Origin: an uncultured Gammaproteobacteria bacterium
GTDB lineage: Bacteria > Pseudomonadota > Gammaproteobacteria > UBA6186 > Azoamicaceae
NCBI GenBank assembly: GCA_963784575.1
Contig: CAWARU010000001.1
Span: 2,375,244 to 2,439,243, forward strand
DNA: 64,000 nt
Direction of reading: 5' to 3'
This document shows positions 27,622 to 48,742 of the stretch, one piece after another (position 1 is the first letter of the stretch; every line of letters starts with the position of its first letter). The notes beneath the pieces were generated by a model. The model did not search any database and had not been told where the DNA came from. It was given only the letters and a program-made list of their open reading frames with translations. Both the position numbers and the translations under genes were made by a program.

Positions 27622-27636
27622 TATAACAAAAAAAAT

Positions 27637-28818: not shown

Positions 28819-30022
28819 AGAGAATAAAATAATTAGAATTTTATTATTATTTACTTGGTTTACAGTTATAATTCTCGCATTAAAATTTGTTCAAAGAAAG
28901 CTTGCCAGAGCTGCCAGCAAGTTCATTTTACCAGCGCAATCAAGAGATTTTACCTATCTAAAGGTTGGTCTAGACAATAATCGTGTTTTGGCATCAGAGT
29001 ACATGGCTATTTGGAAAGCAAATATTGTGGAGAATAATATGCGATTTTATGTGCATAAATTGCCTCTCCAGAGATTGAATGTTTTTGAAATAGAGGTTTC
29101 AGCGGAAGCTCAAGATATCATAGTTTTCAACACAAATGATTCGTGTTATGAAGAGAATCTCGAATATCTTTTTTTAATGGCTCAAGGTACAAAATGCAAT
29201 ATTTTTGCTTTTAATTATAGGACTGTTAATTCTAATAGAAGAGAGGGAATTATTAAACAAGAATTAATCGATGATGGAAAGGAAGTCTATCGTTTTGTTA
29301 AAACTAGAAGAGGTAGATCAAATGGAATAATTTTGTATGGTCATTCCTTAGGTGCAATGATTGCCATATTTGTTGCCATTGATTGTTTTAAAAATAACCA
29401 GTCCGTTAAAATATTCAGTGATCGTGCTCCCGCAAGCTTATCTGAAGCTGTTTGCGGTTTGGCACGAACAATCTTTGAAAATCCAGATAAAATAGGATTA
29501 AACTGTTCTCCAAGACCAATGATTGGTAGGATTCTGTCTATGATTATTTGGCCAATCGTTAAAATTGGTTTAATATTGCTCGGATGGGAAATGAATGTAG
29601 CGACTGCATTCAGAGAAATTCCAGATGATGTTAAAGAATATACGGTGATTCGATCAAAAAAAGAGGATCGAAGTTATGATCGCTTAAGTGCCAGGCATGT
29701 TGATGATCTCATTATTTATTTTCGCAGTAGTTTATATGCTGCCTTAAGTCGAGAAACAAAAGCACAGAAAAACAGTCTTAAGTCCACAATTCAAGAAATG
29801 CAGCTTGAACAGCAATTTGGAAAAACTATTGATGAGGAGCGTCTTAAGCAAGTACAACAGCGTCTCGCTCTTTTAAAGGCTAGGAAGTTTAATGGATCAA
29901 CAAAAGATAGTCATGGTGTACCATTGATGTTTTTGAAGAGTCGTAATGATGATAGAACGGGGCTAAAGTTACTCGCAGAATTTTGCCATAGAAACCAGGA
30001 TATACAAATTCCTAAATTTTAG
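28808..30022 (+). CDS. Membrane-anchored alpha/beta-hydrolase (GxSxG serine hydrolase)
   Basis: Start overlaps the MFS stop. Has an N-terminal TM helix and the nucleophile elbow GHSLGA within ..GIILYGHSLGAMIAIF.. Confidence 0.65.
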   Translation: MTNEENKIIRILLLFTWFTVIILALKFVQRKLARAASKFILPAQSRDFTYLKVGLDNNRVLASEYMAIWKANIVENNMRFYVHKLPLQRLNVFEIEVSAEAQDIIVFNTNDSCYEENLEYLFLMAQGTKCNIFAFNYRTVNSNRREGIIKQELIDDGKEVYRFVKTRRGRSNGIILYGHSLGAMIAIFVAIDCFKNNQSVKIFSDRAPASLSEAVCGLARTIFENPDKIGLNCSPRPMIGRILSMIIWPIVKIGLILLGWEMNVATAFREIPDDVKEYTVIRSKKEDRSYDRLSARHVDDLIIYFRSSLYAALSRETKAQKNSLKSTIQEMQLEQQFGKTIDEERLKQVQQRLALLKARKFNGSTKDSHGVPLMFLKSRNDDRTGLKLLAEFCHRNQDIQIPKF

Positions 30023-30054
30023 ATGGTAACCGGCCATTGGCATGGCAAATTTGT

Positions 30055-31269
30055 TTAATCGACCAGTCCTGATAGATTTTCTATTATTTTCTTTATGTGC
30101 TGCAAGAATTTGGAGGCTTCAATACCATTAATGATACGATGGTCAATTGTCAGTGAGAGATGAAGGTAGTTTAATTCTGGAGGGTAGGGGGAGCCTAAAA
30201 ACAACAGTGCTATTGCGGGATCAACTAAAAGAGGCGACCCCCAGACTACCCCACAATCTCCCATATAACTTAAAATGATATTGGGCCGTAATTTGATTTG
30301 ATCTTCCCCATCTAATGCTCGTTCAACGCGGGTTTGCAAAGCATCTATGAAGCTATCAAAATTTAAGGTGTCTGCTGCAGGGATCACAGCTGTTACTAAA
30401 TCATCTTGGTGAGTTTGAACAGCAATCCCTAAATTAACATGAGAAAATTCGCGTTTAATAGATTTACCGATGAGCATGGTTCGAAATAAAGGATATTTTA
30501 TACAAGCTTGTGCTACACAATAAGCAAATGCTTGGAAGACAGAAATTGCTTTTTGATTATCCAAATCAGCACCCTGTTCCCTAAAGAATTGCGCAACTTT
30601 TTCTAATTTAATCAATTCAATAGTTGCGACCAAGGTTGCAGGAATAATATTCTGCTGGCTGGCTTTAAATCGCGCATTTAACATTTGTTGTTGTTCTGGG
30701 ATGTAAATGTCCTGATATATTCGTATATCTTCTTCCGCAGTTCTGGATACATTTTGCAGTTTATTTTTTTGTTCAAGATAATTGTCTACATCTGTTGATA
30801 ACAAAACAGAACCATCCTGCGGTATTGCCAGCATTTCCGCTAAAGATATCCCCGCCTCTTTACAATAGAGTCGAGTCCTGGGGGGAATTTTTCTGAATAT
30901 TTTTTTTTCGTCTTCACTCAACAAAAGTTGTTTGTCATTTTGTGATGGAAAATTTGACATACTTTCTTTTTCAGGCTCGCAAACAACTTTGGAGTGTGTA
31001 TCTATGGTTTCAATTGTACCAATTCTAGCACCTACGGCTACGATATCTCCTTCATTTACTTCCCAACTCAGCAAATGACCGCCAACCAGAGCTTCAATTT
31101 CGAAAGTAGATTTATCTGTTTCCATTATATATAAAACCTGATCTTTTTCTATTTTTTCACCAAGATTTTTTAAAAAACGAATAATAGTTACCTCTCTCAA
31201 TCCTTCCCCCATTTGAGGAACAATAATTTCAGAAATAACAGGGCTAATTGTTGCAGTTTGTTTAGACAT
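30055..31269 (-). CDS. 2-oxoacid dehydrogenase E2 (dihydrolipoamide acyltransferase)
   Basis: Lipoyl-lysine motif METDKSTFEIEA and catalytic DHRIINGIEASKFL. Confidence 0.85.
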   Translation of the reverse strand: MSKQTATISPVISEIIVPQMGEGLREVTIIRFLKNLGEKIEKDQVLYIMETDKSTFEIEALVGGHLLSWEVNEGDIVAVGARIGTIETIDTHSKVVCEPEKESMSNFPSQNDKQLLLSEDEKKIFRKIPPRTRLYCKEAGISLAEMLAIPQDGSVLLSTDVDNYLEQKNKLQNVSRTAEEDIRIYQDIYIPEQQQMLNARFKASQQNIIPATLVATIELIKLEKVAQFFREQGADLDNQKAISVFQAFAYCVAQACIKYPLFRTMLIGKSIKREFSHVNLGIAVQTHQDDLVTAVIPAADTLNFDSFIDALQTRVERALDGEDQIKLRPNIILSYMGDCGVVWGSPLLVDPAIALLFLGSPYPPELNYLHLSLTIDHRIINGIEASKFLQHIKKIIENLSGLVD

Positions 31270-31277
31270 ATATTTCT

Positions 31278-33356
31278 CTAGAGAATTGTTAAGGTGTTTT
31301 TAATTGCCGCAATGACATCTTCTACGGATGGCAAGACAGCATATTCTAGACTTGGATGATAAGGAATATGGATATCATCGCGCGCTACTAATTGGGGAGG
31401 AGCATATAAAAAAGAAAACCATTCCGTATTGGAAACAATATTGGATATGATGGTAGACCCAAAACTACTGGTTTTGTTATCTTCTTGCACGACTACCAAA
31501 CGACCCGTTTTTTCCAAGGATTTTGCTATCGTTTTCATATCGCAAGGTACAAGGCTTCGCAAATCAATTATTTCTAAGGAAATTCCAATTTCACTATAAT
31601 AAGCATCGACTTTTTCCATAAGTTCTAATATGTTTCCCCAACATACTACAGTGACATCTGTGCCCTCTTTTACAATCGAGGCAATACCGAAAGATATGGC
31701 CTTGAATTTCGTGACAGATTTCTTTATTCTCGTAATATGCTTTGGTATCAAAATGAGAGAAGGATCAAGATCTTGCATTGCGGCAGCAAATAAGCCAAAG
31801 GCATCTTCTGGTGTACTTGGTACGGCTACTCTAAGGCCAGGGATGTGCGTCCACCACCCTTCATTGCTTTGACTATGCCAAAGTCCTCCTGCTGGTAAGT
31901 ACGCACCGTATGGCGCATATAGAACCATAGGGCAAGACCATTGACTACAACTACGCCATCTCAAGCTCGCAACTTGAGAAACCAACTGATCAAACCCAGG
32001 CGTAATAAAATCAATAAATTGTATTTCAAATACGGGTCTATATCCATGAACAGCTAAGCCTACTGCTGCTCCAATAATTGTAGCTTCTGCAATGGGCGCA
32101 TTGGTTACACGATTGGGATAAAGAGTGCTAAGCCCCTTAGTAAAACCAAAAACACCGCCCTTTGGATCTTCGATATCTTGACCAAAAAGTAACATATTAC
32201 TATTTTCTTGAAGTCCTAAGTTAAGTGCCAGATTTATTGTATCCACCATTGTCAGCGGAGTCTGCAAAGTCTGCGGAGGTTGCAAAGTCTGCGAAGACTG
32301 CGAAATTTGCTGAGACAGAGGGAATTCCGTGAATAGTTCGCGATGGGTAACGGCCGCACCATACAAATGTTCTTTTATATTTAGATCGGGTTCCTCTTTT
32401 TGATTTTCTAAAACTTCATCAAAAGTAGCAAAGACATCATTTTGCAGAGATAGTTCTATTTTTGTTAATTCTTCTTCTGTTAAGTGGCCCTGTTTTATAA
32501 GATGAGCGGCATAAACCTGGATCGGATCACACAAAGCCGCCAATTCATCAGGCGTTCTATAAAGTCTGTGATCTTCTCCCACGGTATGTGAATCAAGCCT
32601 ATCTACAGAACACCATAAAATACTTGGGCCTAGACCTTGCCTCACTTTTTCAATTGCTCGGGCTGCACAATCAAGAACTTGCAATACATCCCGGCCATCT
32701 ATCTGAGTCAGCAATTCTTGATTAAATATGCCCATCTGAAAAGGTAAGAATTTTGCAGTAGGAGTGCTAATTGCATATTGATTATCTTCTACTAAAAAAA
32801 TAATGGGTAATTGCTCTTGGACGGCATGGCAAACTGCCTCATAAAATTCTCCCTCACGGGTTGCTCCATCTCCAATGCTACAAACGGTGAGATGATTCAA
32901 TTTGTCCATTTTTTGGGCCCAGGCTGAACCAACGGCAGGCAAACATTGTGATGCAGTCGGGGCAGCACTCGGAAAGACTTTATAAGTGAATGAACCACAA
33001 TGAGCAACCATACTTCTACCCCCAGAAGTCGAAGATGGCTTTGCTAAGAAATCCTGGACTAATTCTTTGATGGTTATCCCTTTCCCAAGCATTAAATGAC
33101 TTCCCCTATAGTAGGGAAAAAGATAATCTTCTTTATTCAATAAAAAAGGAATAGCCATCAAACCTTCATGTCCACTACTTGAGACATGAACATGAGCCCT
33201 ACCTTGTCTTACCAGCATAGCGCTTTTTTTATCAAATGAGCGCACTTGAAGCATCAAGCGAAGTAAATTTAAGTGCGTACTTCTCTTCACTCTCTTCATG
33301 AGAATGTCTTCCGGCGAATGCTGATGTTGCTCCTGCAAAACTATTTCATTAAACAT
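31278..33356 (-). CDS. Fused E1 alpha-beta subunit of a (branched-chain) 2-oxoacid dehydrogenase, TPP-dependent
   Basis: 692 aa. TPP motif GDGATREGEFYEA in the N-half and a transketolase-like beta half. The halves are joined by a short QTLQ-repeat linker. Confidence 0.85.
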   Translation of the reverse strand: MFNEIVLQEQHQHSPEDILMKRVKRSTHLNLLRLMLQVRSFDKKSAMLVRQGRAHVHVSSSGHEGLMAIPFLLNKEDYLFPYYRGSHLMLGKGITIKELVQDFLAKPSSTSGGRSMVAHCGSFTYKVFPSAAPTASQCLPAVGSAWAQKMDKLNHLTVCSIGDGATREGEFYEAVCHAVQEQLPIIFLVEDNQYAISTPTAKFLPFQMGIFNQELLTQIDGRDVLQVLDCAARAIEKVRQGLGPSILWCSVDRLDSHTVGEDHRLYRTPDELAALCDPIQVYAAHLIKQGHLTEEELTKIELSLQNDVFATFDEVLENQKEEPDLNIKEHLYGAAVTHRELFTEFPLSQQISQSSQTLQPPQTLQTPLTMVDTINLALNLGLQENSNMLLFGQDIEDPKGGVFGFTKGLSTLYPNRVTNAPIAEATIIGAAVGLAVHGYRPVFEIQFIDFITPGFDQLVSQVASLRWRSCSQWSCPMVLYAPYGAYLPAGGLWHSQSNEGWWTHIPGLRVAVPSTPEDAFGLFAAAMQDLDPSLILIPKHITRIKKSVTKFKAISFGIASIVKEGTDVTVVCWGNILELMEKVDAYYSEIGISLEIIDLRSLVPCDMKTIAKSLEKTGRLVVVQEDNKTSSFGSTIISNIVSNTEWFSFLYAPPQLVARDDIHIPYHPSLEYAVLPSVEDVIAAIKNTLTIL

Positions 33357-34462
33357 TGGGCAGCCAGGTTGTAAGGAAGGTTATGATCTTTTGAATATGT
33401 CAATAAATCTAATACTTTCTTGTGGATATTATCTTCGATCCATTTTTGGGCGTGTTCTAATGGGTGCCCTAGATAAGAGTTTCCAGCAAAAACTGCGCCC
33501 CCAACATTTGCGATAAAATCGGGGATATAAATGATATTTCTTTTATATAAGAGATCGTCCATCTCTTCAGAAGCTAAAATATTATTTGCTGAACCACAAA
33601 TTATTTTTGCGTTAATGTCAGTGATTGTTGCATTATTAATCACTTCTCCTAAACCACAGGGTGCAAAAATATCATACTCACCTTTATGTATGTGAGAGGG
33701 CTCGACAACTTGTGTCTTGTGTGTCTTGCATTTCTCCTGAAATAGATGAGTTCTCTGCAAATCGATGTCAGTCACTGTGAGCTTTGCGCCTTGTTCATAT
33801 AAAACGCTCGCCAAAAGATATCCGACTTTTCCAAGACCTTGTACTGCAATTTTTAATCCTGACAGGTTGCTTTTTCCGAACTTAAACAGAGCTGCTGCTT
33901 TCATTGCTTCTAATACGCCGGCCACTGTCAAGGAAGCCAAATGGTCTATGTTATCATGGGAGGTTAAAGCTGTAATATAATTGGTGTTCTTAGCCGCAAT
34001 TTGTAAATCTTCTGGGGAAACACCACTGTCGCAGCCCGTGATGATACGCCCCTCTAGACTCTCGATAAATTGACCGTATTCTAGAAAGTAATTATGCTTA
34101 TCCACATTCTTCGATGGCTTAATCAAAACAGCTTTTCCTCCATTAAAGGGAAGCTCTGCAAATTTTGCTTTATACGTCATTGCTCTCGATAATTTGACTG
34201 CATCGAAAATGGCGTCCTCAATTGAGGAATAATAAATACAACGCGTACCCCCCAATGCTGACTTGTATTCCGAGTTTGCGCGATCAATCGATATAATCGC
34301 AATGAGATTTGAGACAGGATTAATCTTTACATACAATTCATTAGGACCAGTAATCATTTTATATAATGATTTTTGTAGTGAATCATGTGTTGAATTATGT
34401 GTTGAAGTATTTAATGAAGTATAGTCATGTCTTGAAATTACAGTTTGTTCGATACTCATCAT
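33341..34462 (-). CDS. Leu/Val/Phe dehydrogenase family amino-acid dehydrogenase
   Basis: GGTRCIYY, catalytic Lys context FNGGKAVL and NAD motif GLGKVGYLLA. Confidence 0.85.
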   Translation of the reverse strand: MMSIEQTVISRHDYTSLNTSTHNSTHDSLQKSLYKMITGPNELYVKINPVSNLIAIISIDRANSEYKSALGGTRCIYYSSIEDAIFDAVKLSRAMTYKAKFAELPFNGGKAVLIKPSKNVDKHNYFLEYGQFIESLEGRIITGCDSGVSPEDLQIAAKNTNYITALTSHDNIDHLASLTVAGVLEAMKAAALFKFGKSNLSGLKIAVQGLGKVGYLLASVLYEQGAKLTVTDIDLQRTHLFQEKCKTHKTQVVEPSHIHKGEYDIFAPCGLGEVINNATITDINAKIICGSANNILASEEMDDLLYKRNIIYIPDFIANVGGAVFAGNSYLGHPLEHAQKWIEDNIHKKVLDLLTYSKDHNLPYNLAAQCLMK

Positions 34463-34485
34463 GCCAAGCTCTCTAAACTACAACC

Positions 34486-35421
34486 TTACAATGCAGAGAG
34501 GATTTGTTGTAACCCTTCTTTCAATGTTGTTAAATGTTTCAAATTGGTAAACTTGAAAAATTGCGTTGGATCTCCGAACCGTCTGCTGACTTCATAATCA
34601 TACCTTTCAGGGGGCATTTCATGAAATTCTAATTTGGATTTCGAATTGGTTAATTCAATCACCTGTTCTGCCAGTGCTCTAATGGTTCCTTCTTGTCCAG
34701 TGGAGATGTTGAGAACACGAAAGTTGCTGCTGTCTTCCTTGTTCACTCTAATTGTTAATAACTTGACAATGGCTTCTGCGCCATCCTTAACATAGGTAAA
34801 ATCCCGTGTCTGCATCCCATCACCGTATACTTTAAGGTTATTGCCAGCTAAACCTGCTTCAATAAAGCGTGGGATAACCATTCGATTATCCTGTCTCGGA
34901 CCGTATAGATTAAAAGGGCGTATGACTGTTACATTAATATTTTCAGATTCGGCTTGACACTTAGCATATTTTTCTCCCCAAGCTTTTGCAATTGAATAGG
35001 AAGAAGAACCTGAAATTGGCATATCTTCAAAAGCAGCAATTCCTTGGTTCATAGAACCATACACGGAACTACTTGAAGCATAGATGACAGGGCATTTATT
35101 GTTGCTTTTACTCGCCTCAAAGACTGCTCTTACAATTTCGACTTCATTATCCATCTGCTTGGTAGAGTTTGAAATAACATTATCAACTCCTACGACTGAA
35201 GCAAGATTGACAATTCCATTTGCATCGCGAGCCAGTACCTTTAATAAACCAGGTTCGCGTGCATCTCTTGCTTTAAAATCGATATTTGCTTTTATATGAT
35301 CTGGCAATTTATTGCCGTTTGAAAGAAAATCAATAGCAGTGACGTCCCAACCTTGATTTAAAAATGCTTCTACAACGTGACTGCCATAGAAACCTGCCCC
35401 ACCTACAACAAGGACTTTCAT
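34486..35421 (-). CDS. NAD-dependent sugar epimerase/dehydratase (extended SDR)
   Basis: VVGGAGFYGSHV and YSIAK (YxxxK). Confidence 0.85.
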   Translation of the reverse strand: MKVLVVGGAGFYGSHVVEAFLNQGWDVTAIDFLSNGNKLPDHIKANIDFKARDAREPGLLKVLARDANGIVNLASVVGVDNVISNSTKQMDNEVEIVRAVFEASKSNNKCPVIYASSSSVYGSMNQGIAAFEDMPISGSSSYSIAKAWGEKYAKCQAESENINVTVIRPFNLYGPRQDNRMVIPRFIEAGLAGNNLKVYGDGMQTRDFTYVKDGAEAIVKLLTIRVNKEDSSNFRVLNISTGQEGTIRALAEQVIELTNSKSKLEFHEMPPERYDYEVSRRFGDPTQFFKFTNLKHLTTLKEGLQQILSAL

Positions 35422-36491
35422 ATTGTTTCCTCATTTTTGCCAGTTAAAATTTTCTCATACAATTGATTTATCGAAGTTCTTTGAATTTCTAAAGTAAAAT
35501 GGTTGTTGTAAATGTTAGAGCTTTCTTGGCCAAACAAAAGTTTTTTGTCTTTATTATTTAAGAGATCAAGTGAACACTCAGCAAGTTTTAAATAATTCCC
35601 TTTTTCAACCAAATAGCCATTTTTATTAGGAGTAACAAGTTCTTTTAATCCACCTACATTTGTGGCGACGATAGGCTTGCCGCAAGACATAGCTTCTACA
35701 ACAACTCTTGGTGTACCTTCTGTATCAGATGATAGAATTAAAAATTCTATTTGATTGTATAAATTAGCAAGGAGATTTCTGTCCAATATCAATCCGGTAA
35801 AAATAATTTTATTTTCCAGTCCAAGAGTTTTAGATAATTCTTTTAATTTTTCCTTTTCTGGACCAGACCCCACAATAAAAAATGCCAATTCTTCTTTATA
35901 ATTTTGTAATATTTCTCTGCAACATTTCAGAAAGATATCGAGTCTTTTTTCAGAGGATAGGCGCCCCACACATGCTATTATTTTAGTGTTAGGCTTTAAT
36001 TTAAACATTTCATTTATATCGATATAATTGCTTACAGCGGGTGGAAACACTCCATTGGGAATATATTGAACGGGAACTTTAGGATATTTTTCTTGGATTA
36101 CCAGCATATTGTGGCCGTCTACTGTTAAAGCGTTGGCAATCCTGTATGTATATATGTCCAAAGCGGTTTTCAATTTAAGGGAAAAAGAGGTTCTCACCCA
36201 ACCATGACAAGACATTACTATTGGAATATGAGTACCCAAAAATTTAGTTATTAAATAAGTAATATAATTGGCGTCATATCCGTGGCTGTGAATTAAATCA
36301 ATTTTGTTGCTGCTGACCCATTTGCTCAAATTTTGTAGATGCTTGATGTATCCTTCCTTTTTTTTAAAATAGAGATATTTTATTTTTTCCTTCTCCAAGA
36401 GATTTACAAAACTATCATTTTGATTAATAAAAATGGTATTTTCAAAATTAAGATCTTGCTTTTGACCTTTAAGGAGTTCCAGTAGATGCAT
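35418..36491 (-). CDS. Glycosyltransferase family 4 (GT-B)
   Basis: E-x7-E region EGTPRVVVEAMSCGKPIVATNVGGLKELV. Overlaps the SDR gene start by 4 nt. Confidence 0.85.
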   Translation of the reverse strand: MHLLELLKGQKQDLNFENTIFINQNDSFVNLLEKEKIKYLYFKKKEGYIKHLQNLSKWVSSNKIDLIHSHGYDANYITYLITKFLGTHIPIVMSCHGWVRTSFSLKLKTALDIYTYRIANALTVDGHNMLVIQEKYPKVPVQYIPNGVFPPAVSNYIDINEMFKLKPNTKIIACVGRLSSEKRLDIFLKCCREILQNYKEELAFFIVGSGPEKEKLKELSKTLGLENKIIFTGLILDRNLLANLYNQIEFLILSSDTEGTPRVVVEAMSCGKPIVATNVGGLKELVTPNKNGYLVEKGNYLKLAECSLDLLNNKDKKLLFGQESSNIYNNHFTLEIQRTSINQLYEKILTGKNEETI

Positions 36492-36545
36492 ATCTACTCC
36501 CCCATCTCACCTTCAGGTTCTGGTTCTAATATATGTAGGATTTTC

Positions 36546-37322
36546 CTAGGATTTTTTAAGCCAGTATCTTTCATAATACACTTCTGTTTGATTTGAAATA
36601 AAAGAGGAGTATTCCTCATACACTTTAATCATATGATCTTTGTCTTGCCATAACATTCTTGCCTGTGAGGCATACATGCCAATCGCATGTAATTTTCTCT
36701 GATAATCTATATCATGAATTAATTCTAACGCAGGGCTTAGGGAATTATCAATATAAGGAGACCCTTGCACTCCTTGATGAGCATATGGCATATCTTCATA
36801 ATACTTGATTTTATCAGTAAACAAATTTGTTTTCGAGAGATTTTCGATACTTTTCCTTGTAATTACGTGATCCACATGATTGCCAATACTCAGTGGGATA
36901 AAGATTGCATCAAATCGATTCTTCTCCTGAATATCTGCAATTTCCTGCTCCAGAATTGAAATTAATTTTCCTTCTTTTTCGGCTTTCCCTTCAAAAACCT
37001 CGTCAAACGAAGCATAGAAGTGCTTACCAATTTCATTGAATCTATATTGGCTTTCGAATTGATCGAGAAATAAAGGAATGAATCCAAGCTCTTTTGAAGC
37101 AGCTATTTCTTCTTTTCGGCGGATCTCTATGGCATTAGGGCCTAATCCACAACTTTGATGAAATTGTATAGCAGCATCTGATAGATTATTGGCTTCCGGA
37201 AGTCCGGTAAAAATATTTAATACATAGACTTCTGAGTTGTTTAGTCGCACTTCTTTACTTATAAGGCCTCCACAGGATAAGACGGCATCATCTAGATGGG
37301 GAGAAACAAACAATATTTTCAT
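36546..37322 (-). CDS. PIG-L/LmbE family N-acetylglucosaminyl deacetylase
   Basis: FVSPHLDDAVLSCGG and GNHVDH metal-binding motifs. Confidence 0.85.
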   Translation of the reverse strand: MKILFVSPHLDDAVLSCGGLISKEVRLNNSEVYVLNIFTGLPEANNLSDAAIQFHQSCGLGPNAIEIRRKEEIAASKELGFIPLFLDQFESQYRFNEIGKHFYASFDEVFEGKAEKEGKLISILEQEIADIQEKNRFDAIFIPLSIGNHVDHVITRKSIENLSKTNLFTDKIKYYEDMPYAHQGVQGSPYIDNSLSPALELIHDIDYQRKLHAIGMYASQARMLWQDKDHMIKVYEEYSSFISNQTEVYYERYWLKKS

Positions 37323-37469
37323 AAAGTCAACCTAAGTCAATTTAAGCCCAATGGCTAAGATGTAACAGACGCTAGTCGACAGTATACACTTCGTTTAGTC
37401 CATCAATCCACTATTTAATTTATTAAAAACTTATCCTTTAATTCCATTTTTTCATCGAATAGGTTAATG

Positions 37470-37499
37470 TAAGGAGTTTTCAATTAAGGAGTTTTCAAT
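37470..37499. repeat. Tandem 15-bp direct repeat (taaggagttttcaat x2) in a divergent promoter region
   Basis: Read directly. A second pair of atcaggttttt motifs lies at 37586-96 and 37606-16, spaced 20 bp apart. Confidence 0.8.
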
Positions 37500-37629
37500 T
37501 TTTGAACTTTTGAATTTATGTAGGCATTAAAGATAAAAAAATACCGGAAGATTGTGATGGTATGTTAGCTGTCAAATTAGATTCAATCAGGTTTTTGAAA
37601 CTTCTATCAGGTTTTTAAAAATAGATATT

Positions 37630-38232
37630 TTGAATAAGGCGGATCAGACAATGGATTTGAGCAGAATTGAACTCTTATTGAGTAAACATGAAAAAGTAGA
37701 GCAAGCAAGGGCTCTATTAAAAGAAAATGACCTGGAGAACAATATTGAGGTTTATATAAAATTGCATGAAGGATTGGATTTGGATTATGACAAGGATAAG
37801 GATAAAGTTATCCAAGAAATGAAAAAATACATGGCCCTTAACTTGCCTTATTCATTAATGCCTTCTCATATTGAAATAATGACTGCATGTTTATCTGATT
37901 CACTTGAAAACGACGGCAAAGATGAACCGATAGCAAAGCGAGCTTCAGAAGCTTCAAATGATGAAAATAAAACAGAAAACGGAGAATACAACAATCTTAG
38001 GGTAGAATCGGTTCTTCTGGATGTATGGCGCAGTGTTTTGGGAAATAAAGGAATACAGGTTGATGACAATTTCATGGACTTGGGTGGAGATTCCCTCAAA
38101 GCTACTGCCATCATTTCTCAGATTAAAAAGATACTGCAAGTTAATATATCCTTTAGAGAATTTTTTTCTTTTCCCAAAATATGTTTGCTCTGTAAACTAA
38201 TTGATGAAAAGAACTCAGTAAAAACACAGTAA
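37630..38232 (+). CDS. NRPS fragment: adenylation C-terminal subdomain (A8-A10) fused to a peptidyl carrier protein
   Basis: Begins within an A8-like RIELLL.., then LPYSLMP (A9-like) and NDGK (A10 Lys), followed by the PCP motif LGGDSLKA. There is no A-core upstream. The track uses a TTG start. Confidence 0.7.
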   Translation: MNKADQTMDLSRIELLLSKHEKVEQARALLKENDLENNIEVYIKLHEGLDLDYDKDKDKVIQEMKKYMALNLPYSLMPSHIEIMTACLSDSLENDGKDEPIAKRASEASNDENKTENGEYNNLRVESVLLDVWRSVLGNKGIQVDDNFMDLGGDSLKATAIISQIKKILQVNISFREFFSFPKICLLCKLIDEKNSVKTQ

Positions 38233-38281
38233 GCAAAGGCCATATATAAACTAAATTTTACCAAAGATAAAAAGGTGTCAT

Positions 38282-39814
38282 TTGAGTAATTATTTATTTC
38301 CCATTTCCTATGCCCAAAAGAGAGTCTGGAATTTAGATAAGTTTATGAGTCAAAACTTTGGCTTTGCTATATTTAACATTCCTTATATCATAGAAGTGGC
38401 AGGGGACCTTAATGTAGAAATATTAAATAAATCTATTAATTTTTTAATTGCGAGGCACTTATCTTTAAGAACAGGAATTCTAGAGAAGGACGGAGAACTA
38501 TTCCAAAAAGTGTTTGATAAGGTTGAATATAAGCTAGAGGTAAAGAAGCCATGCAATGAACAAAAATTTAGTAAAAAAGAAATACAGTGTATTTTAGAGC
38601 AAGAGATAAATCATACCTTCAACTTAAATCAAGCTCCTCTATTCAGGGCTACTTTAATTGAATTGGATAATGATAAATATATATTAGTTTTTTTGTTGCA
38701 TCATATCATAAGTGATGAATGGTCTGTAGGCATTTTTTCTCAAGAATTAAGTAGGATTTATACAAATTATCTACAAGGACATCTTCCGGGTCTGATAAAA
38801 CTCGAGTCATCCTATGGACAATTCTCAACATGGCAAAAAGCTTGGTTTGAAGGCGAGAAGCTTGATCAGCAGTTAAACTTTTGGAAAAGTAAGCTAGATA
38901 ATCACAAGCTTTTCCATATCCCATTTGATCACGAGAATAACGAAGTGGTAAGCGAATCAGGTTCTTACCGTTTTAGCCTTAATGAAGAAATAACCAGAAA
39001 ATTAAAAGAATTAAGCGCCGGTGTTTCATCAACATTATTTATAACTCTTTTAGCCATTTATAAAGTGGCATTACATAAAATTTACAATCAAAACGATATC
39101 CTTGTCGTTTCCCCTATTTCTAGCAGACACTACGATGGTGTAGAAAATTTAATTGGTTGTTTCGTGAACTATATCATATTGCGAAGTAAAATAGAAGAAG
39201 AGTGCTCTTTCTTGGCTTTATTGAATGACATAAAAATATCTGCACTGGAAGCTTATGATAACCAAGATATTCCTTTTGATATGTTAATGGATAATGTAAG
39301 CGAGGAAGAGGGATACCAAAAATATTTTCCACAATTATTTTTCGAAATGAAGAAAGCTAAAAAATACTCGTTAGATTTTCCAGGAACAACGACAAAATGG
39401 TGCAATAACCTAGATATAGAAAGTTTGCTAAACAATGATTTGCGAAATAACGATGATGAGAAAAGTAGTGAGGAAATTTCCGATTGCAATGCACTGGATA
39501 TTGAAATCGAATATTCGGCAGCCCTTTATAATGAATCGACTTTTGCTCGCTTAGCAGATAATTTTATGTTTATAACTAAACAAATTATAGATAATCCGCA
39601 AATAATAATTAGCCAAATTTCATTACTGCAGAAGGGCACAGAAAATGGCATAGAAAAGGTCACAGAAAAAAGCGCAAAAAAGGATCCAGAAAGAGGATCT
39701 ATTTCTCGTTCTGAAGGTGTCTGTATCCCAAGTCTACCCAGAAAAAGACAGCCTAATAGCGGCATCATAGAAAAACTTAATAAGTATCTTAAATTTTCAG
39801 TAAAAGAACTGTAA
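38282..39814 (+). CDS. Stand-alone NRPS condensation domain protein
   Basis: C1-like SYAQKRVWNLD and C3 HHIISDEWS. About 430-aa C domain plus a charged tail. TTG start in the track. Confidence 0.8.
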   Translation: MSNYLFPISYAQKRVWNLDKFMSQNFGFAIFNIPYIIEVAGDLNVEILNKSINFLIARHLSLRTGILEKDGELFQKVFDKVEYKLEVKKPCNEQKFSKKEIQCILEQEINHTFNLNQAPLFRATLIELDNDKYILVFLLHHIISDEWSVGIFSQELSRIYTNYLQGHLPGLIKLESSYGQFSTWQKAWFEGEKLDQQLNFWKSKLDNHKLFHIPFDHENNEVVSESGSYRFSLNEEITRKLKELSAGVSSTLFITLLAIYKVALHKIYNQNDILVVSPISSRHYDGVENLIGCFVNYIILRSKIEEECSFLALLNDIKISALEAYDNQDIPFDMLMDNVSEEEGYQKYFPQLFFEMKKAKKYSLDFPGTTTKWCNNLDIESLLNNDLRNNDDEKSSEEISDCNALDIEIEYSAALYNESTFARLADNFMFITKQIIDNPQIIISQISLLQKGTENGIEKVTEKSAKKDPERGSISRSEGVCIPSLPRKRQPNSGIIEKLNKYLKFSVKEL

Positions 39815-39878
39815 TTGTTCGAATATCTTTTATCTTGAGGGTTCATTTATTCTTCGCATTGATTCAGGGATCGAAATG

Positions 39879-41789
39879 CTACGGCCACCAACCCCGTGGC
39901 GGCCACCAGCGGCTTTTTGACCTTGCTTCTCTTTTAGGATTAACTCCGACTTCAGGTTCTTTTGCTTTTGAATGTTCACTGATGTTTCTGTAGCTGAAAG
40001 TAAGTAAAGTTTCCGAAGATGAGTCATCCATGTCAGCAGAAAGAGGCATTCTAATTTCATCAGATTGTGGAGATTGAACCTCATCTCCAGTTTCAGCACC
40101 ATTGTGTATGGTTTGGATGGTAGTAATTTTAACTTGTGGCGTATGTTCTGGAGGAACCTCATCAGACACAACTGCTGAGGTTCCTTCTATTGTTGGAGAC
40201 ACCTCTAGTGTTTGAGACACCTCTATTTCAGAGGCAGGTTTAATTGCAGGGGACATATCAAGCGCGGTAGATGCTGATGCAGCAGGAGGCAACAACCAAT
40301 TTTTGATTTTTCGCAGCCAGTAACCTAATAAAAAGCTTCCTCCGATCGAAACTCCAATTCCTTGTGCTGTGGCCACACCGATTAAGCCAAGTCTGGCTGG
40401 AAAACCAAGTGCATAAGCTAAAGTAAGACCAATCAAGCCTATATTAACTACTTCAGATATCATGGCAGTTTTGCTTTCTTTAAAAGCACCTTGAATGCTA
40501 CCCGCAGTAATCATTCGGATAGAATCGAAGGTCTGCATCAAACCTTTGATTACGAATAATATTTGGGCATTCCTAACGATTTCATCGTTCTCTGGATCAT
40601 CCACATCAATTAAAGGTTTCATTAATTCTTTTGAAATTGTGGCCATAAATCCGCAAAGCAGAAATGAGATCCCTCCTCCCAAAAGAATACAAAAAGTGCC
40701 AATTTTTTTCGCCTGATTGATCCTATGTGCCCCACTCTCTCTTCCGACTAAAATAATTGTTGATTGGTTTAATCCAGAAGTGAGTACACCTGCTAGTAAA
40801 ATATATTGCGAAGAAATTTGATAGGCAGAAAGTGCATTTACCCCAAGATTTCCAACAAAGGCAGAGTACCCTAATAGGAACAAAAACTCAGAACCAGCTT
40901 GCAGCCCGCAGGGAAGACCTATTCGAAACAATTCTTTTAGGGTACTTTTTACCTCTTTTAATTCACTGAATAAATCAAATTTATAATCCCGGAAGCGAGG
41001 GCCATATTTCAAATAAGTTGTGAAAAAAATGAGTTCGAGCCAATTGGTGATGCTCGATGCAAAACCTAACCCAGCCACGCCCATTTCTTCCCCCAATATT
41101 CCGTTTACAAAGAGATACCCCAATAATGAGACAGATACACTATCTAACAAGGTCAGGATATTGACAGATTTGATATCACCAACGCCTAGTGCAATTTGTT
41201 TTTCAAGATACACCACAAAGATGGCTGGTATTCCCCAGGAATAAGCAATAAAATATTCCTCCACACTTCCAAGCAGCTCTTCTGGCTGCTGGCACGCTTG
41301 TAAAACTTTTCGGCTGCAAAGAGAGCTTATAACCGCAGGCACGGACAAGATCAAAGCAAATGCTACCCCTCCCTTTAAACTATGCCGAATCTTCGCAAGT
41401 GCTCGCTCTGGATTATGTTCTTTCTCACCAAAGGCATTACTTACGATCGTGCAAGCGGTGCTTAATATCACGCAGCCCGTCGTGGTGTTCAGGAGCTGAT
41501 AACTGCCAATTAAAGCACTGGCGGGTAGTGTCTTATTGGCCAGAATAATAATATTCACAAAGTGAGAACCCATTTCAATGCCAGGCGCAATGCTGTTTGA
41601 TACGGTATAATAAGCAATTTCTTTGAGTGTCTTATAATCTGGACATTTATTATTTTCTTCTTGTGAAGCAGAATGAGGCCCTAAATTTTGGCTTTGTTCT
41701 CGTTGAATTTTTCTGAGGGCTTGGTATCGAGTTAACATCCTGTATCCTTTATCGTAATTGTTCAAGGACGGTGCGTGAACGCTTTTCAT
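39879..41789 (-). CDS. MATE family efflux transporter with a roughly 150-aa C-terminal extension
   Basis: About 12 hydrophobic helices with a MATE-like layout and a low-complexity Ser/Glu/Pro tail. Confidence 0.75.
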   Translation of the reverse strand: MKSVHAPSLNNYDKGYRMLTRYQALRKIQREQSQNLGPHSASQEENNKCPDYKTLKEIAYYTVSNSIAPGIEMGSHFVNIIILANKTLPASALIGSYQLLNTTTGCVILSTACTIVSNAFGEKEHNPERALAKIRHSLKGGVAFALILSVPAVISSLCSRKVLQACQQPEELLGSVEEYFIAYSWGIPAIFVVYLEKQIALGVGDIKSVNILTLLDSVSVSLLGYLFVNGILGEEMGVAGLGFASSITNWLELIFFTTYLKYGPRFRDYKFDLFSELKEVKSTLKELFRIGLPCGLQAGSEFLFLLGYSAFVGNLGVNALSAYQISSQYILLAGVLTSGLNQSTIILVGRESGAHRINQAKKIGTFCILLGGGISFLLCGFMATISKELMKPLIDVDDPENDEIVRNAQILFVIKGLMQTFDSIRMITAGSIQGAFKESKTAMISEVVNIGLIGLTLAYALGFPARLGLIGVATAQGIGVSIGGSFLLGYWLRKIKNWLLPPAASASTALDMSPAIKPASEIEVSQTLEVSPTIEGTSAVVSDEVPPEHTPQVKITTIQTIHNGAETGDEVQSPQSDEIRMPLSADMDDSSSETLLTFSYRNISEHSKAKEPEVGVNPKREARSKSRWWPPRGWWP

Positions 41790-41919
41790 GTGTAAGATTA
41801 CAAAATACTCTGTTTATAAGTCAACAGATTGTGTATCATGGCAAATTCGACCTTCCTTCAAGAAGGATGTTGTAAAACTAACAAATATTGGAAAGGCAAT
41901 ATAAAGGTAATAGAGGAAT

Positions 41920-42948
41920 ATGAAAACCACCTTTAGAATCATAAGCAGTTCGAAAGAATTGTTTAGCATTAAGAAGGATTGGGACACTCTGTATCACTCC
42001 GGAAATTTCGATATTTTTCAATCATTTGAATGGTTTTATCTGTGGTGGAAATATTTTGGGCAAGATTTGAAGCTCTTCTGTTTATGCTTTTATAATGAAA
42101 AATCAGATCTGATTTTTGTTGCTCCGCTTATCATTTCTATTGAGGGGAATAATAGAATTTTGAGATTTTCAGGTGGCAATCTAAGTGATTATAATTTTTT
42201 AATAACTCATGCTGGATACACTAATGGAATCATCATGAAGATTTTTTATACCACAATAATGCAATTTATGGGTACTCATTTTGACGAAATTCAATTGAAA
42301 CACGTAAATTTATTAAAGCACAATATGTTAGAATTTCATTTTCAAGAGTCAGGGTTAGCATTACAGCCTTTAGAAGACGAGCTTGCTATGAAAATTGTTT
42401 TGCCTGGGTCTTTGGAAGAGTATTATGGGCAAATAGAAGGAAAACGCAAGAAAGTTTTTGATTACTATGAAAGAAATGTATTTAAAAAATTGGGTTTCCA
42501 GTTCAATTTTTTAGAAGAAAAACAAGATATCGAGAAATACACTCGTTGGTTTGAAGAACAAAAAAAATACCTTTGGAAACAATATAACCTATATGAAAGA
42601 TTACCTCCTGAAATACAGCATGAAGATTTTTTCAATTATTTAAATGACATTATCTTGGCGAATCAAGAAACTAAATTCTTGTTGATACCCTGCATTACGA
42701 AAGACGATATGCTATTAGCATCTGGCTTTTATTTTTATTATAAAAACACAGTATTTAAGTTCATGCAATCCTGGGATTATAATTATAAAAGCAGTAGTAT
42801 AGGAACAGTGCTAGACTGGAAGATGATACAATATTCGATAATAAATGGATTCAAGTATTTTGATCTAGGAAGGGGTGATGAAGCATACAAATCTAGGTTT
42901 GGCGCATTGCCTGTCACGTTATCTGGTTTTAGAGTAACATGCCAATGA
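41920..42948 (+). CDS. CelD/BioF2-like GNAT acyltransferase (Acetyltransf_6 type)
   Basis: N-terminal W..L......FQSFEWFYLWWKYFG pattern and C-terminal FDLGRGDEAYKSRFG. Confidence 0.65.
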   Translation: MKTTFRIISSSKELFSIKKDWDTLYHSGNFDIFQSFEWFYLWWKYFGQDLKLFCLCFYNEKSDLIFVAPLIISIEGNNRILRFSGGNLSDYNFLITHAGYTNGIIMKIFYTTIMQFMGTHFDEIQLKHVNLLKHNMLEFHFQESGLALQPLEDELAMKIVLPGSLEEYYGQIEGKRKKVFDYYERNVFKKLGFQFNFLEEKQDIEKYTRWFEEQKKYLWKQYNLYERLPPEIQHEDFFNYLNDIILANQETKFLLIPCITKDDMLLASGFYFYYKNTVFKFMQSWDYNYKSSSIGTVLDWKMIQYSIINGFKYFDLGRGDEAYKSRFGALPVTLSGFRVTCQ

Positions 42949-44003
42949 ATATGAAAAAAGCAATTTATTTTTCTACTTTTACTTCAGGATTGGGCGGCAT
43001 CATTGAGCCTCTTTTGAAAAAGAAGTTAAAATCAATAAAAATCATTAAACTATTTGATGGTGGAATCTTATATGAAACTGCCGGTAATGTTTCTCAAATT
43101 GGAAATTTCGAATTTTTAAACAATTCTTTTTTAGTTTTATTCTATCTCAAACAAACTACTTCGATGCCATTCCAAAAAGTAATCCAAGGCATGCTCGAAA
43201 AAAAAATAAGTTTCAATAAATCTTTACAGTTTAAGAGCAGAGAATTTAAATTATTTTTTTCAAATGAGAATCAATTTGAAAGTGTTGATAGGAATATAAA
43301 AAACGGATTTGAAGCTCTCATTCGCAAGAATTTTCACATGTCTTATATTCCGAGCTCCAGTAAAAAAACTGCCAATGAATTTTGGGTCCTGCGACGAAGC
43401 GAAAATTATTGTTTCTTGATGTTAAGAATATCAGAGAATAATGAAAAACCTATGAAGGGAGAATTGAGAAGAGAATTAGCCTATATTATGGCATACTTAT
43501 CTAAACCTTCTCCTGAAGATAAATTTATCGATCCTTTTGCTGGGTATGGTTCAATTCCTTTGTTAAGACTGGCTTCACCTTTCAAAAGGATGTGTATTTT
43601 AGATATAGAACAACCCTGTGTAGAATTTATCCGAAAAAAGATTAACGCCATGAAAATTCAAAGAAGAGGCGATATTTTCATCGGACAGCAAGATTTCTTT
43701 AAAACTTCGTTGCAAGAAAATTATTTTAATAAAATAGTGAGTGATCCTCCATGGGGGACGTTCAGTAAAATGGATAACATTGAGGATTTCTATGCTGAGA
43801 TGTTTGATAAATTCCTATATATTCTTGCGGAGGAAGGACTCATCGTTTTATTAGTCGAAAGGAAACTCGATGCCATTGTCGAGCGAATCTTGCGAAAACA
43901 GAAAGATCAATTGATACTAGATGTAAAATTTGAAATACTGTTGTCTGGTAGAAAGGCAACTATTTATAGGATCATTAAAAAGACTCAAAAGCATCATTCG
44001 TAA
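42939..44003 (+). CDS. SAM-dependent methyltransferase, THUMP/UPF0020-like (DPPW class)
   Basis: Motif I DPFAGYGSIPL and motif IV SDPPWG. The stop TAA is the first 3 nt of a taactgttcagg repeat motif. Confidence 0.65.
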   Translation: MPMNMKKAIYFSTFTSGLGGIIEPLLKKKLKSIKIIKLFDGGILYETAGNVSQIGNFEFLNNSFLVLFYLKQTTSMPFQKVIQGMLEKKISFNKSLQFKSREFKLFFSNENQFESVDRNIKNGFEALIRKNFHMSYIPSSSKKTANEFWVLRRSENYCFLMLRISENNEKPMKGELRRELAYIMAYLSKPSPEDKFIDPFAGYGSIPLLRLASPFKRMCILDIEQPCVEFIRKKINAMKIQRRGDIFIGQQDFFKTSLQENYFNKIVSDPPWGTFSKMDNIEDFYAEMFDKFLYILAEEGLIVLLVERKLDAIVERILRKQKDQLILDVKFEILLSGRKATIYRIIKKTQKHHS

Positions 44004-44202
44004 CTGTTCAGGATTCAATCGACAACTTACGACATGATGAAATGGAAAAATTAACCTGGAAAATAAATTTAAAAGAAAATATCAGTAAATCAGATCACCA
44101 AAATGCCTGATTTTTTTGAAGTAATTCTTGAAATCATGTTGTATTTTGACTTAAAATATGTTATATAATTACTGCGTTTTGAAATTTGAGAGGAGACAAA
44201 AC

Positions 44203-44409: not shown

Positions 44410-44540
44410 TAAAATTGAACTTTTTTATTAGTGAGGCATGAAGAGACTCTGTATTCCCAAAAAATTATTGGTATGAACATTCGAGAATACAAAACTAACT
44501 TTAAATAAATCTGTGTTTGGTTTAAGAGGAATATTATTGC

Positions 44541-48737: not shown

Positions 48738-48742
48738 AACAA

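Follow-up and report, generated by a model that had tools for sequence, protein, structure and literature searches.

A rare inositol and condensation-domain gene cluster in which a 2-oxoacid dehydrogenase cassette may load a separate carrier protein

Gene content of the locus

The 64-kb stretch of DNA analyzed here (the window) is part of contig CAWARU010000001.1 of an uncultured gammaproteobacterium (assembly GCA_963784575.1, positions 2,375,244 to 2,439,243) and has a guanine-plus-cytosine (GC) content of about 35%. Its open reading frames (ORFs) of at least 100 amino acids were scanned against Pfam and NCBIfam. An original prediction, made from the letters alone, had described eleven genes at 30055-44003, which included a fused E1 alpha-beta gene, and had set the boundary of the locus at 44003. 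The ORF map and the Pfam scan recovered all 11 of these ORFs where they had been placed and with the domains given to them. However, the locus does not end at 44003. The flagged genes are the left half of a biosynthetic cluster of about 17 genes, which occupies 30055-44003 and 54605-61263, and five more cluster genes in the right half encode an FkbM methyltransferase, myo-inositol-1-phosphate synthase (MIPS), a glycosyltransferase, a DegT aminotransferase and an inositol monophosphatase (IMPase). About 10.6 kb of insertion sequence (IS), toxin and uncharacterised DNA parts the two halves. The features of the cluster are given below, where core marks a gene counted in the core of the cluster family, which also includes the related loci L002, L004, L006, L071, L074 and L110 (next section), and percentages are identities to the orthologues there.

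30055-31269, minus strand: E2 dihydrolipoyl acyltransferase (Biotin_lipoyl and 2-oxoacid_dh; Pfam)
31278-33356, minus strand: fused E1 alpha-beta (E1ab), the thiamine diphosphate (ThDP)-dependent 2-oxoacid decarboxylase component, 692 aa (E1_dh, Transket_pyr and Transketolase_C)
33341-34462, minus strand: ELFV-family L-amino-acid dehydrogenase (Pfam)
34486-35421, minus strand: short-chain dehydrogenase/reductase (SDR) of the nucleotide-sugar epimerase/4,6-dehydratase type, LegB-like (Pfam, NCBIfam; orthologue only in L002, 80%)
35418-36491, minus strand: GT4 glycosyltransferase, BshA-like (GlcNAc to small acceptor; PDB, NCBIfam)
36546-37322, minus strand: PIG-L/LmbE-family de-N-acetylase (Pfam, 54.7 bits)
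37323-37650: intergenic region from which the sugar/acyl operon and the carrier protein/condensation-domain pair diverge (ORF map)
37651-38232, plus strand: vestigial adenylation C-terminal subdomain plus peptidyl carrier protein (Asub-PCP; profile search against the PDB; the ORF could open at TTG 37630)
38282-39814, plus strand: free-standing condensation (C) domain, LCL-like, with HHIISDE (Pfam, 243 bits)
39879-41789, minus strand: MATE efflux transporter, core at about residues 105-483, long termini (Pfam, NCBIfam)
41920-42948, plus strand: Acetyltransf_6 (GNAT/FemAB-like) acyl- or aminoacyl-transferase, core (Pfam; 35-37% in L004, L071 and L110)
42939-44003, plus strand: THUMP-type RNA guanine-N2 methyltransferase homologue (UPF0020), core, contains IVSDPPWG (Pfam, NCBIfam)
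54605-55423, minus strand: FkbM-family methyltransferase (Pfam, NCBIfam; orthologues in L002, 84%, and L110, 73%)
55492-56685, minus strand: MIPS, core (Pfam; L002 73%, L004/L071 58%, L074 60%, L110, partial, 42%)
56929-57903, plus strand: ORF inside the cluster with a faint LRR signal (Pfam, E = 0.008)
57973-59166, minus strand: group-1 glycosyltransferase, named GT1 here, core (Pfam; 46-60% in L002, L004, L071 and L110)
59133-60386, minus strand: DegT/StrS-family pyridoxal phosphate-dependent aminotransferase, core (Pfam, 300 bits; orthologues 53-72%)
60394-61263, minus strand: IMPase family, core (Pfam, 154 bits; 40-43% in L004, L071 and L110)

The genes from PIG-L (37322) to E2 (30055) form a leftward operon with junctions of +54, -4, +23, -16 and +8 nt, in agreement with the 4-54 nt spacing first described. 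The claim that E3 is missing also held, and no E3 (Pyr_redox) was present among the scanned ORFs of the window. However, the MATE gene, which had been listed after the C domain, is on the minus strand and convergent with the C-domain gene, not co-directional with it. A promoter and terminator scan of 29800-44600 gave counts not above those in shuffled sequence, and neither Rfam (at gathering thresholds) nor a tRNA scan gave a match anywhere in the window.

Related loci and synteny

Related loci were found from contigs carrying the closest relatives of the C domain, and L110 was found from the context of the closest methyltransferase relatives. The free C domain had only a handful of close relatives when 5.8 billion protein clusters were searched, and none of about 95 other C-domain loci from two collection scans shared a second cluster gene. 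The gene contents of the related loci were as follows.

L002 (C domain 52% identical): DegT, GT1, ABC exporter, Asub-PCP, C, PIG-L, GT4, SDR, dehydrogenase, E1ab, E2, FkbM and MIPS, contiguous
L004 and L006, two Alphaproteobacteria metagenome-assembled genomes (C domain 35% identical): ABC, Asub-PCP, C, MIPS, DegT, GT1, Acetyltransf_6, dehydrogenase, E1ab, E2 and IMPase
L071, a complete compact version: the gene set of L004, then a UPF0020 methyltransferase (40% identical to that of the window), a transposase and conjugative type IV secretion system genes
L074, a fragment: C and MIPS
L110: methyltransferase, A-PCP-C (A, adenylation), IMPase, cupin, Acetyltransf_6, GT1, DegT, FkbM and MIPS, without dehydrogenase, E1 or E2

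In L002, 12 orthologues from both halves of the window cluster (42-84% identity) lie contiguously and without mobile DNA, and L004/L006 and L071 have 10-11 orthologues each. The shared core consists of Asub-PCP, C, MIPS, IMPase, DegT, GT1, Acetyltransf_6, dehydrogenase, E1ab, E2, methyltransferase and an exporter, with an ABC transporter holding the place of MATE in L002, L004 and L071. Among the related loci PIG-L, GT4 and SDR were confined to the window/L002 lineage and are lineage-specific accessories, while FkbM was present in that lineage and in L110 and missing from the compact loci L004 and L071. The locus is thus one conserved unit, rare and recurring on independent contigs. Because gene order differs from that of L002 by inversions and mobile DNA lies between the halves, the window copy is a rearranged, IS-invaded version of the cluster; all its reading frames are intact. 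The ORF at 56929-57903 had no homologue in the related loci and is probably an insertion.

No description of a cluster combining inositol genes with a C domain was found in the literature, and nothing comparable was mentioned in two surveys of Legionella biosynthetic gene clusters. The parts are individually familiar; it is their combination that we did not find described.

Asub-PCP and the free C domain

The original prediction had named an A-subdomain-PCP and had regarded this protein and the C domain as orphan parts of a nonribosomal peptide synthetase (NRPS). The domain assignment was borne out: a profile of three Asub-PCP orthologues aligned end to end with the Asub and PCP regions of LgrA (602-769), PvdL (1444-1628) and TycA (430-599), and also with the Asub+PCP stretch of SrfA-C. 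The GGDSL phosphopantetheine site was invariant in the alignment of the orthologues, and the A10 lysine was not conserved. The gene most likely starts at ATG 37651, as called on the Logan contig, and encodes 193 aa. Only the subdomain from A8 onward is present in the window in place of a complete adenylation domain, and no remnant of an A core was detected by tblastn in the window, L002, L004 or L071.

The HHIISDE motif was invariant in the C-domain orthologues. The best PDB match of the C domain was TycC (2jgp), and VibH was not among the strong matches. The PCP and C genes adjoin in every instance (L002, L004, L071 and the window). A conserved C-terminal tail of about 15 aa, which follows a variable linker, was also observed in the C-domain proteins of the window (39740-39814), L002, L004 and L110; it reads KLNKYLKFSVKEL in the window and NKLIKFTIKNTR in L110 and could be a docking or localisation peptide.

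In L110 the same parts belong to a single A-PCP-C protein with motifs A1-A10, of which A3-A10 lie inside the called ORF and A1 and A2 in frame just upstream, and this locus has no dehydrogenase, E1 or E2. Residues 8-194 of the window Asub-PCP aligned to residues 320-498 of this protein, beginning at IELDQIE after the A8 hinge, and the window C domain aligned to residues 514-942. Because the Asub-PCP begins at the A8 hinge and L110 keeps A-PCP-C without the cassette, an ancestral A-PCP-C protein most likely lost its A core and split, and the dehydrogenase/E1ab/E2 cassette would have taken over PCP loading. Judged by these alignments, the NRPS parts are no orphans but conserved orthologues, the remnants of an A-PCP-C protein that is intact in L110. 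The A domain of L110 has the equivalent of Asp235, which implies an aminoacyl donor in that locus. A Stachelhaus code extracted by hand from this domain was an unassignable string and was rejected. At 1218-1508 of L110, A1 and A2 lie upstream of the first ATG, GTG or TTG, with no canonical start for about 97 codons, pointing to either an error in the assembly or a start codon of a non-canonical kind.

The dehydrogenase, E1 and E2 cassette

The original prediction had labelled the three acyl genes as leucine dehydrogenase (LeuDH) and branched-chain 2-oxoacid dehydrogenase (BKD). These labels stand at the family level only. The dehydrogenase shares 39% identity with LeuDH; against the PDB it scored 206 bits with LeuDH and 196 bits with tryptophan dehydrogenase (TrpDH), while its best NCBIfam model was the Trp dehydrogenase ScyB (252 bits versus a cut-off of 600). 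Alignment to LeuDH 6acf showed that the catalytic residues K68, K80, D115 and N262 are retained. In LeuDH the side-chain pocket is formed by Leu40, Ala113, Val291 and Val294. The window enzyme keeps L40 and reads TGCDSGV / GGAVFA where LeuDH reads TAEDVGT / GGVINV, with the changes A113G, E114C, V116S, V291A and V294A; glycine at 113 is presumably the state of phenylalanine dehydrogenase. This signature is common to the dehydrogenases of the window, L002, L004, L064 and L069 (with Thr at 291 in L069). With smaller residues in its pocket, the enzyme may take a substrate of greater bulk than leucine. The protein is therefore a family-level match to LeuDH, whose identity as LeuDH is not established because the pocket differs; a branched-chain substrate is possible.

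The best PDB matches of the fused E1 were the branched-chain E1 proteins of Thermus and Pseudomonas. The full set of E1 domains is present, and the equivalog scores of housekeeping BKD were not reached by E1 or E2: the E1 halves scored 191-215 bits against NCBIfam cut-offs of 321-411, and the best E2 match scored 113 bits against a cut-off of 449. The closest E1 relatives of known context (57-74% identity) belong to this cluster type or lie beside E2 proteins fused to an acyl carrier protein (E2::ACP) in polyketide synthase (PKS)/NRPS clusters. Fused E1 proteins of about 53% identity that are annotated as 2-oxoisovalerate dehydrogenase were very many, and they are more distant than the E1 proteins linked to PKS genes or to this cluster. 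The linker between the alpha and beta parts of the window E1ab (about residues 345-368) carries a Gln/Pro/Thr-rich insertion, SQQISQSSQTLQPPQTLQTPLT, by which the protein exceeds its orthologues in length by about 40 aa.

Alignment of E2 showed the lipoyl motif METDKS, a segment resembling a peripheral subunit-binding domain (PSBD) and the catalytic motif DHRIING. Its orthologues were 62% (L002) and 42% (L004/L071) identical, and the nearest non-orthologous E2 proteins (43-44% identity) end in a C-terminal PP-binding domain. In a neighbour-joining (NJ) tree the E2 proteins of the window, L002 and L004 formed one clade with eight E2::ACP fusions (bootstrap 95/100), and two E2 proteins from a catabolic context (P0197 and P0200, beside genes for electron transfer flavoprotein, acyl-CoA dehydrogenase and methylcitrate metabolism), used as outgroup, were outside it. 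Because E2 sits in a clade of carrier-protein-fused E2 proteins, its product is more likely an acyl-S-PCP than an acyl-CoA. Given this placement and the altered pocket, the branched-chain acyl-CoA product that had been expected is not established. Neither the window nor any of the related loci contained a dedicated E3, and the context of the cassette is PCP, C and sugar genes.

The cassettes closest to that of the window have the same gene order (E1 57-64%, E2 39-44% and dehydrogenase 47-51% identity). In L064, L069 and L070, dehydrogenase, E1ab and E2::ACP lie directly upstream of trans-acyltransferase (trans-AT) PKS genes, and in Legionella septentrionalis (L065) the order ACP, E1ab, E2::ACP, with no dehydrogenase, is found in a PKS/NRPS cluster. 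The PKS-linked cassettes share the dehydrogenase pocket signature (TGCDSGV / GGAV[FY]A). However, their E2 is fused to a PKS-type ACP that feeds a PKS, whereas the window has an unfused E2 together with an NRPS PCP and a C domain. No description of E2::ACP or of dehydrogenase cassettes in trans-AT PKSs was found in the literature, and dehydrogenase-E1ab-E2::ACP is apparently an undescribed, recurrent starter cassette.

Inositol, sugar, transfer and export genes

MIPS and IMPase are core genes, and for this reason inositol or inositol phosphate is a likely building block. MIPS and DegT are adjacent and overlap in L004 and L071. The top PDB match of DegT was glutamine--scyllo-inositol transaminase (7b0d, 150 bits), with sugar aminotransferases scoring nearly equal, and its best NCBIfam model was PseC. 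DegT is the likely source of the conserved amine, the candidate acceptor of the acyl group. No inositol dehydrogenase of the Gfo/Idh/MocA type was found in the window cluster, L071 or L110.

The best PDB match of GT4 was BshA (5d00, 85 bits), with MshA at 41 bits. In NCBIfam it scored 104 bits with BshA (cut-off 274) and 72 bits with MshA (cut-off 462), and the PIG-L protein scored 22.7 bits with BshB1 (cut-off 182). The amine formed by GT4 plus PIG-L had been proposed as the acceptor. It cannot be the conserved acceptor, since PIG-L, GT4 and SDR are missing from the complete clusters L071 and L110; the PIG-L-derived amine could serve an extra acylation in the window/L002 lineage. The Acetyltransf_6 protein gave weak matches to FemAB/FemX.

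The RNA methyltransferase

The gene at 42939-44003 had been described as a DPPW methyltransferase. Gene and motif are present, but the protein proved to have the fold of an RNA m2G methyltransferase, unlike a tailoring enzyme. An alignment-based AF2 model (pLDDT 95) was used, and a single-sequence model (pLDDT 35) was discarded. The model contained an N-terminal ferredoxin-like/THUMP module and a Rossmann methyltransferase domain, and full-length Foldseek matches were Trm14 (TM score 0.74), TrmN (0.73-0.77) and RlmLK (0.67). Going by this model, the fold is of the THUMP type. The DPPW motif was invariant in the family, and a (D/N)PPW motif fits nucleobase N-methylation.

At E <= 1e-30, a search of 1.84 billion proteins gave a family of 219 representatives, and the three best matches in that whole library were all from inositol clusters. 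The orthologues in L071 and L110 were 40% and 36% identical, and the gene is kept in three cluster architectures. EmtA was the top NCBIfam model for 42 of the 42 members sampled, and the Trm11-like and Trm14 models were also matched. However, the EmtA model requires 625 bits, and the window protein reached only 34.5 bits and its L071 orthologue 54.5 bits (the lowest E-value among the 42 relatives was 5.6e-26), so that by score the methyltransferase is not an EmtA equivalog. EmtA, which methylates G2470 of 23S rRNA, makes its bearer resistant to the oligosaccharide antibiotic evernimicin (PMC13602947). Compared with EmtA and the THUMP-domain RNA m2G methyltransferases Trm14, TrmN, Trm11 and RlmL, the window protein shares the DPPW motif and a full-length fold match (to Trm14 and TrmN), and it differs from EmtA in its score and in that more distant family members are archaeal housekeeping genes. 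Because an RNA methyltransferase travels with the cluster in three architectures, it is, by analogy, a candidate self-resistance determinant that would probably modify the rRNA or tRNA of the producer. The distant relatives in L112 (archaeal genome GCA_902385655.1) lie beside genes for a proteasome, an eIF-5/eIF-2B-domain protein and a beta-CASP nuclease, and the cluster gene may derive from an archaeal-type RNA methyltransferase family.

Intervening DNA and neighbouring loci

The DNA between the two halves of the cluster, and the other features of the window outside the cluster, were as follows.

44004-54604: intervening DNA, outside the pathway, with IS3-like and IS21-like elements, DUF6431, a HigB/Gp49-like toxin and uncharacterised ORFs (Pfam, repeats)
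45394-46544: IS3-like transposase (Pfam)
48687-51191: IS21-like element, AAA_22 plus rve/Mu-C transposase, with 19-nt terminal inverted repeats (Pfam, repeat search)
53285-53632: HigB/Gp49-like toxin (Pfam)
13189-14007: AbiEii toxin, outside the cluster (Pfam)
20893-21747: WD40 propeller protein
23741-25195 and 26308-27621: radical SAM/SPASM maturase-like genes
28808-30022: DUF818/SdbB-SdbC-like alpha/beta hydrolase, a weak match to a Dot/Icm effector family
61970-63556: ORF with a weak, sub-threshold ankyrin-repeat match

The ORFs of 44004-54604 had no homologue in L002, L004 or L071, and the IS21-like element had only weak betaproteobacterial matches in PLSDB (about 67% identity). The low GC content and the eukaryote-like or effector-like proteins (WD40, ankyrin- and LRR-like, and the weak SdbB/SdbC-like match) suggest that the bacterium is intracellular and Legionellales-like.

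The region 23359-28818 looks, from its gene content, like a sactipeptide- or ranthipeptide-type cluster for a ribosomally synthesized and post-translationally modified peptide, and it abuts the left edge of the cluster described here. It contains, directly upstream of the two maturase-like genes, an ORF of 61 aa whose C-terminus is rich in Cys (...FVFCDEHPSGKLGANNCCSKC), together with an uncharacterised 392-aa ORF and a major facilitator superfamily (MFS) transporter. A further small-molecule locus at 228-9832 encodes a NodU-like carbamoyltransferase, DUF1015, SbnA, SbnB (344 bits, above the cut-off of 327), CarA and CarB, which point to synthesis of L-2,3-diaminopropionate and carbamoylation. 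SbnA is split in two overlapping ORFs (3696-4343 and 4303-4662), probably by a frameshift.

Proposed pathway and alternative explanations

What the analysis shows is the gene content, the integrity of domains and motifs, the synteny, the position of E2 in the tree and the methyltransferase fold; all substrates, the transfer from E2 to the PCP, the nature of the acceptor and what the methyltransferase does are inferred. The reading that we favor, and hold to be reasonably probable, is that the cluster makes a small N-acylated amino-sugar/inositol glycoside whose acyl group is loaded by E2 onto the PCP. The product would most likely be a pseudo-oligosaccharide akin to aminoglycosides and to the mycothiol core. 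The ELFV dehydrogenase would deaminate an L-amino acid to the 2-oxo acid, which the fused ThDP-dependent E1 would decarboxylate, acylating the lipoyl arm of E2. E2 would then load the acyl group onto the phosphopantetheine arm of Asub-PCP instead of onto CoA, and a housekeeping E3 would re-oxidise the reduced lipoyl group. The free C domain would move the acyl group from the PCP to the amine of a soluble inositol-containing glycoside and form an amide. For this acceptor, MIPS and IMPase would provide inositol or inositol phosphate, GT1 would attach a sugar, and DegT would install the amine on the cyclitol or on the sugar. A second acyl or aminoacyl group would be added by the Fem/GNAT-like transferase. 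In the window/L002 lineage GT4, PIG-L and SDR would add and modify an extra amino sugar, and FkbM (also in L110) would methylate the product. The MATE pump would export the product, and RNA methylation would protect the producer. The N-acylated amino-sugar conjugate of the original prediction survives in part here: a dedicated small-molecule pathway in which the C domain couples an acyl group with an acceptor of the amino-sugar type is retained, and the inositol half had been missed.

Several points weigh against this pathway. Neither a phosphopantetheinyl transferase (PPTase) nor an E3 was present in the locus, and no obvious enzyme that would form the ketone for DegT was found in the minimal clusters L071 and L110. 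The catabolic E2 proteins, at 36-39% identity, are only slightly more distant from the window E2 than the fusions are, and the tree that separates them is a simple NJ tree. In the NJ tree of E1, the window and L002 proteins grouped with PKS-linked E1 proteins, and the alphaproteobacterial E1 proteins of the inositol clusters were placed elsewhere; this tree was set aside as support. The donor supplied by E1 and E2 would be deaminated and one carbon shorter than an aminoacyl donor, so the architectures with the cassette and with the A domain cannot make identical products. The window PCP is of the NRPS type (LGGDSLKA), whereas the ACPs fused to related E2 proteins are of the PKS type (LGLQGMDS), and because of this difference in type the partnership of E2 and PCP is inferred rather than inherited.

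This last point can also be turned into support for a different use of the cassette, in which dehydrogenase, E1 and E2 are a dedicated BKD-type complex whose acyl-CoA is consumed by Acetyltransf_6, or directly by the C domain in the manner of some starter C domains, and Asub-PCP is otherwise loaded or acts only as a scaffold. It would agree with an E2 that keeps all features of CoA-using E2 proteins, including the PSBD-like segment, with an E1 closest to branched-chain E1 structures, and with the Acetyltransf_6 gene directly upstream of dehydrogenase-E1-E2 in L004 and L071. However, the clade to which E2 belongs otherwise holds only carrier-protein fusions, PCP and C are always neighbours, and L110 puts a PCP-loading adenylation core in the place of the cassette. 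L110 also has Acetyltransf_6 without E1 or E2, so Acetyltransf_6 is independent of the cassette. We consider acyl-CoA supply unlikely, though of real weight. The product might, on the other hand, be a cell-envelope or host-directed glycoconjugate (an inositol glycolipid, a mimic of the glycosylphosphatidylinositol (GPI) core or a surface glycan), with the methyltransferase as a passenger. The combination of GT4, PIG-L and inositol parallels the core that GPI anchors have in common with mycothiol, GlcN-inositol, the glycosyltransferases score highest against models of exopolysaccharide systems, and the eukaryote-like repeat proteins in the window suggest an intracellular lifestyle. However, no phosphatidylinositol synthase, polyprenyl-phosphate transferase, Wzx-type flippase or polymerase was present among the scanned ORFs, small-molecule clusters are where one typically finds a PCP/C pair and an exporter of the MATE or ABC type, and a methyltransferase kept in three divergent architectures is unlikely to be a passenger. 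A glycoconjugate of this kind seems to us quite improbable.

The original prediction had offered as its own alternative a patchwork of housekeeping BKD and lipopolysaccharide (LPS)-type genes, that is, a chance juxtaposition of BKD/LeuDH, LPS-type sugar genes and decayed NRPS fragments. The region is indeed rich in IS elements, and E1 is about 53% identical to the numerous fused E1 proteins annotated as 2-oxoisovalerate dehydrogenase. However, synteny across divergent lineages contradicts it: the same set of genes is seen again in no fewer than four independent lineages, which extend to a second bacterial class. The curated housekeeping cut-offs lie well above the scores of E2 and the dehydrogenase, the catalytic motifs of C, PCP, E2 (lipoyl lysine and DHR) and the dehydrogenase (K68/K80/D115/N262) are all intact, and the NRPS parts are conserved orthologues and not pseudogenes. 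Chance can hardly account for the locus.

Comparison with known systems

Two papers describe comparable carrier-loading enzymes. In ripostatin biosynthesis a complex resembling pyruvate dehydrogenase (PDH) converts phenylpyruvate to phenylacetyl-S-carrier protein (Fu et al. 2017, in PMC5490192), and QncN/QncL/QncM yields glycolicacyl-ACP (PMC6335953). The ripostatin, Qnc and SclQ1-4 (PMC6335953) systems resemble the window in having a cluster-encoded ThDP E1 and lipoyl-E2 and no dedicated E3, and they resemble the route proposed here in that the acyl group ends on a carrier protein, not on CoA, and feeds an assembly enzyme. The window likewise encodes E1, lipoyl-E2 and a carrier protein within one biosynthetic cluster. 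It differs from ripostatin and Qnc, compared by description and not by sequence, in its separate NRPS-type PCP with a dead adenylation subdomain, in the single free C domain downstream in place of a PKS or multimodular NRPS, and in the amino-acid dehydrogenase within the cassette. Compared with a canonical NRPS module, the window has the GGxS of a PCP and the HHxxxD of a C domain without a full A domain.

Free-standing C domains of the VibH type acylate a soluble amine from a separate carrier protein. The window C domain is like VibH in standing alone, with the acyl group on a separate carrier, and its acceptor would also be a soluble amine; by sequence it is unlike VibH, being LCL-like and closest to TycC. 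The mycothiol and bacillithiol core is made by a GT4 (MshA/BshA), a deacetylase (MshB/BshB) and Ino1, and butirosin-type aminoglycosides use a GlcNAc-transferase/deacetylase pair and ACP-dependent N-acylation. With these routes the window shares MIPS, a BshA-like GT4, a PIG-L/LmbE deacetylase and a DegT/StrS aminotransferase, and also, as predicted here, amide formation on an amino sugar and a carrier-borne acyl group. However, there was no MshC/BshC or MshD among the scanned ORFs, GT4 and PIG-L fall far short of the BshA/MshA/BshB cut-offs and do not occur in the minimal clusters, and the amide of the window cluster would be made by a C domain, unlike in the mycothiol and aminoglycoside routes. 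Among the traits of aminocyclitol clusters, a cyclitol synthase and StrS/DegT are present in the window cluster, and a cyclitol dehydrogenase was not found.

Significance

If the proposed pathway is true, the cluster would be a natural case in which an adenylation domain has been functionally replaced by a 2-oxoacid dehydrogenase cassette. The dead A-subdomain left on the PCP would be the trace of this swap, which bears on how NRPS loading evolved and on how it may be re-engineered. The cassette with E2::ACP recurs before uncharacterised trans-AT PKSs, and understanding it here would aid the annotation of their starter modules. A bolder reading, which we hold to be rather doubtful as a whole, is that the locus makes a new class of acylated amino-glycosyl-inositol antibiotic targeting translation, from intracellular or protist-associated bacteria (a Legionellales-like gammaproteobacterium and Alphaproteobacteria), with the conserved THUMP-type m2G methyltransferase as a new self-resistance enzyme for rRNA or tRNA, drawn from a housekeeping family of archaeal type, and the A core swapped for a dehydrogenase cassette. 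Inositol and amino-sugar chemistry together with a travelling RNA methyltransferase is the pattern expected of a ribosome-directed antibiotic with self-resistance, and the methyltransferase would then be a candidate transferable resistance determinant. Intracellular proteobacteria of low GC content are seldom mined for such compounds.

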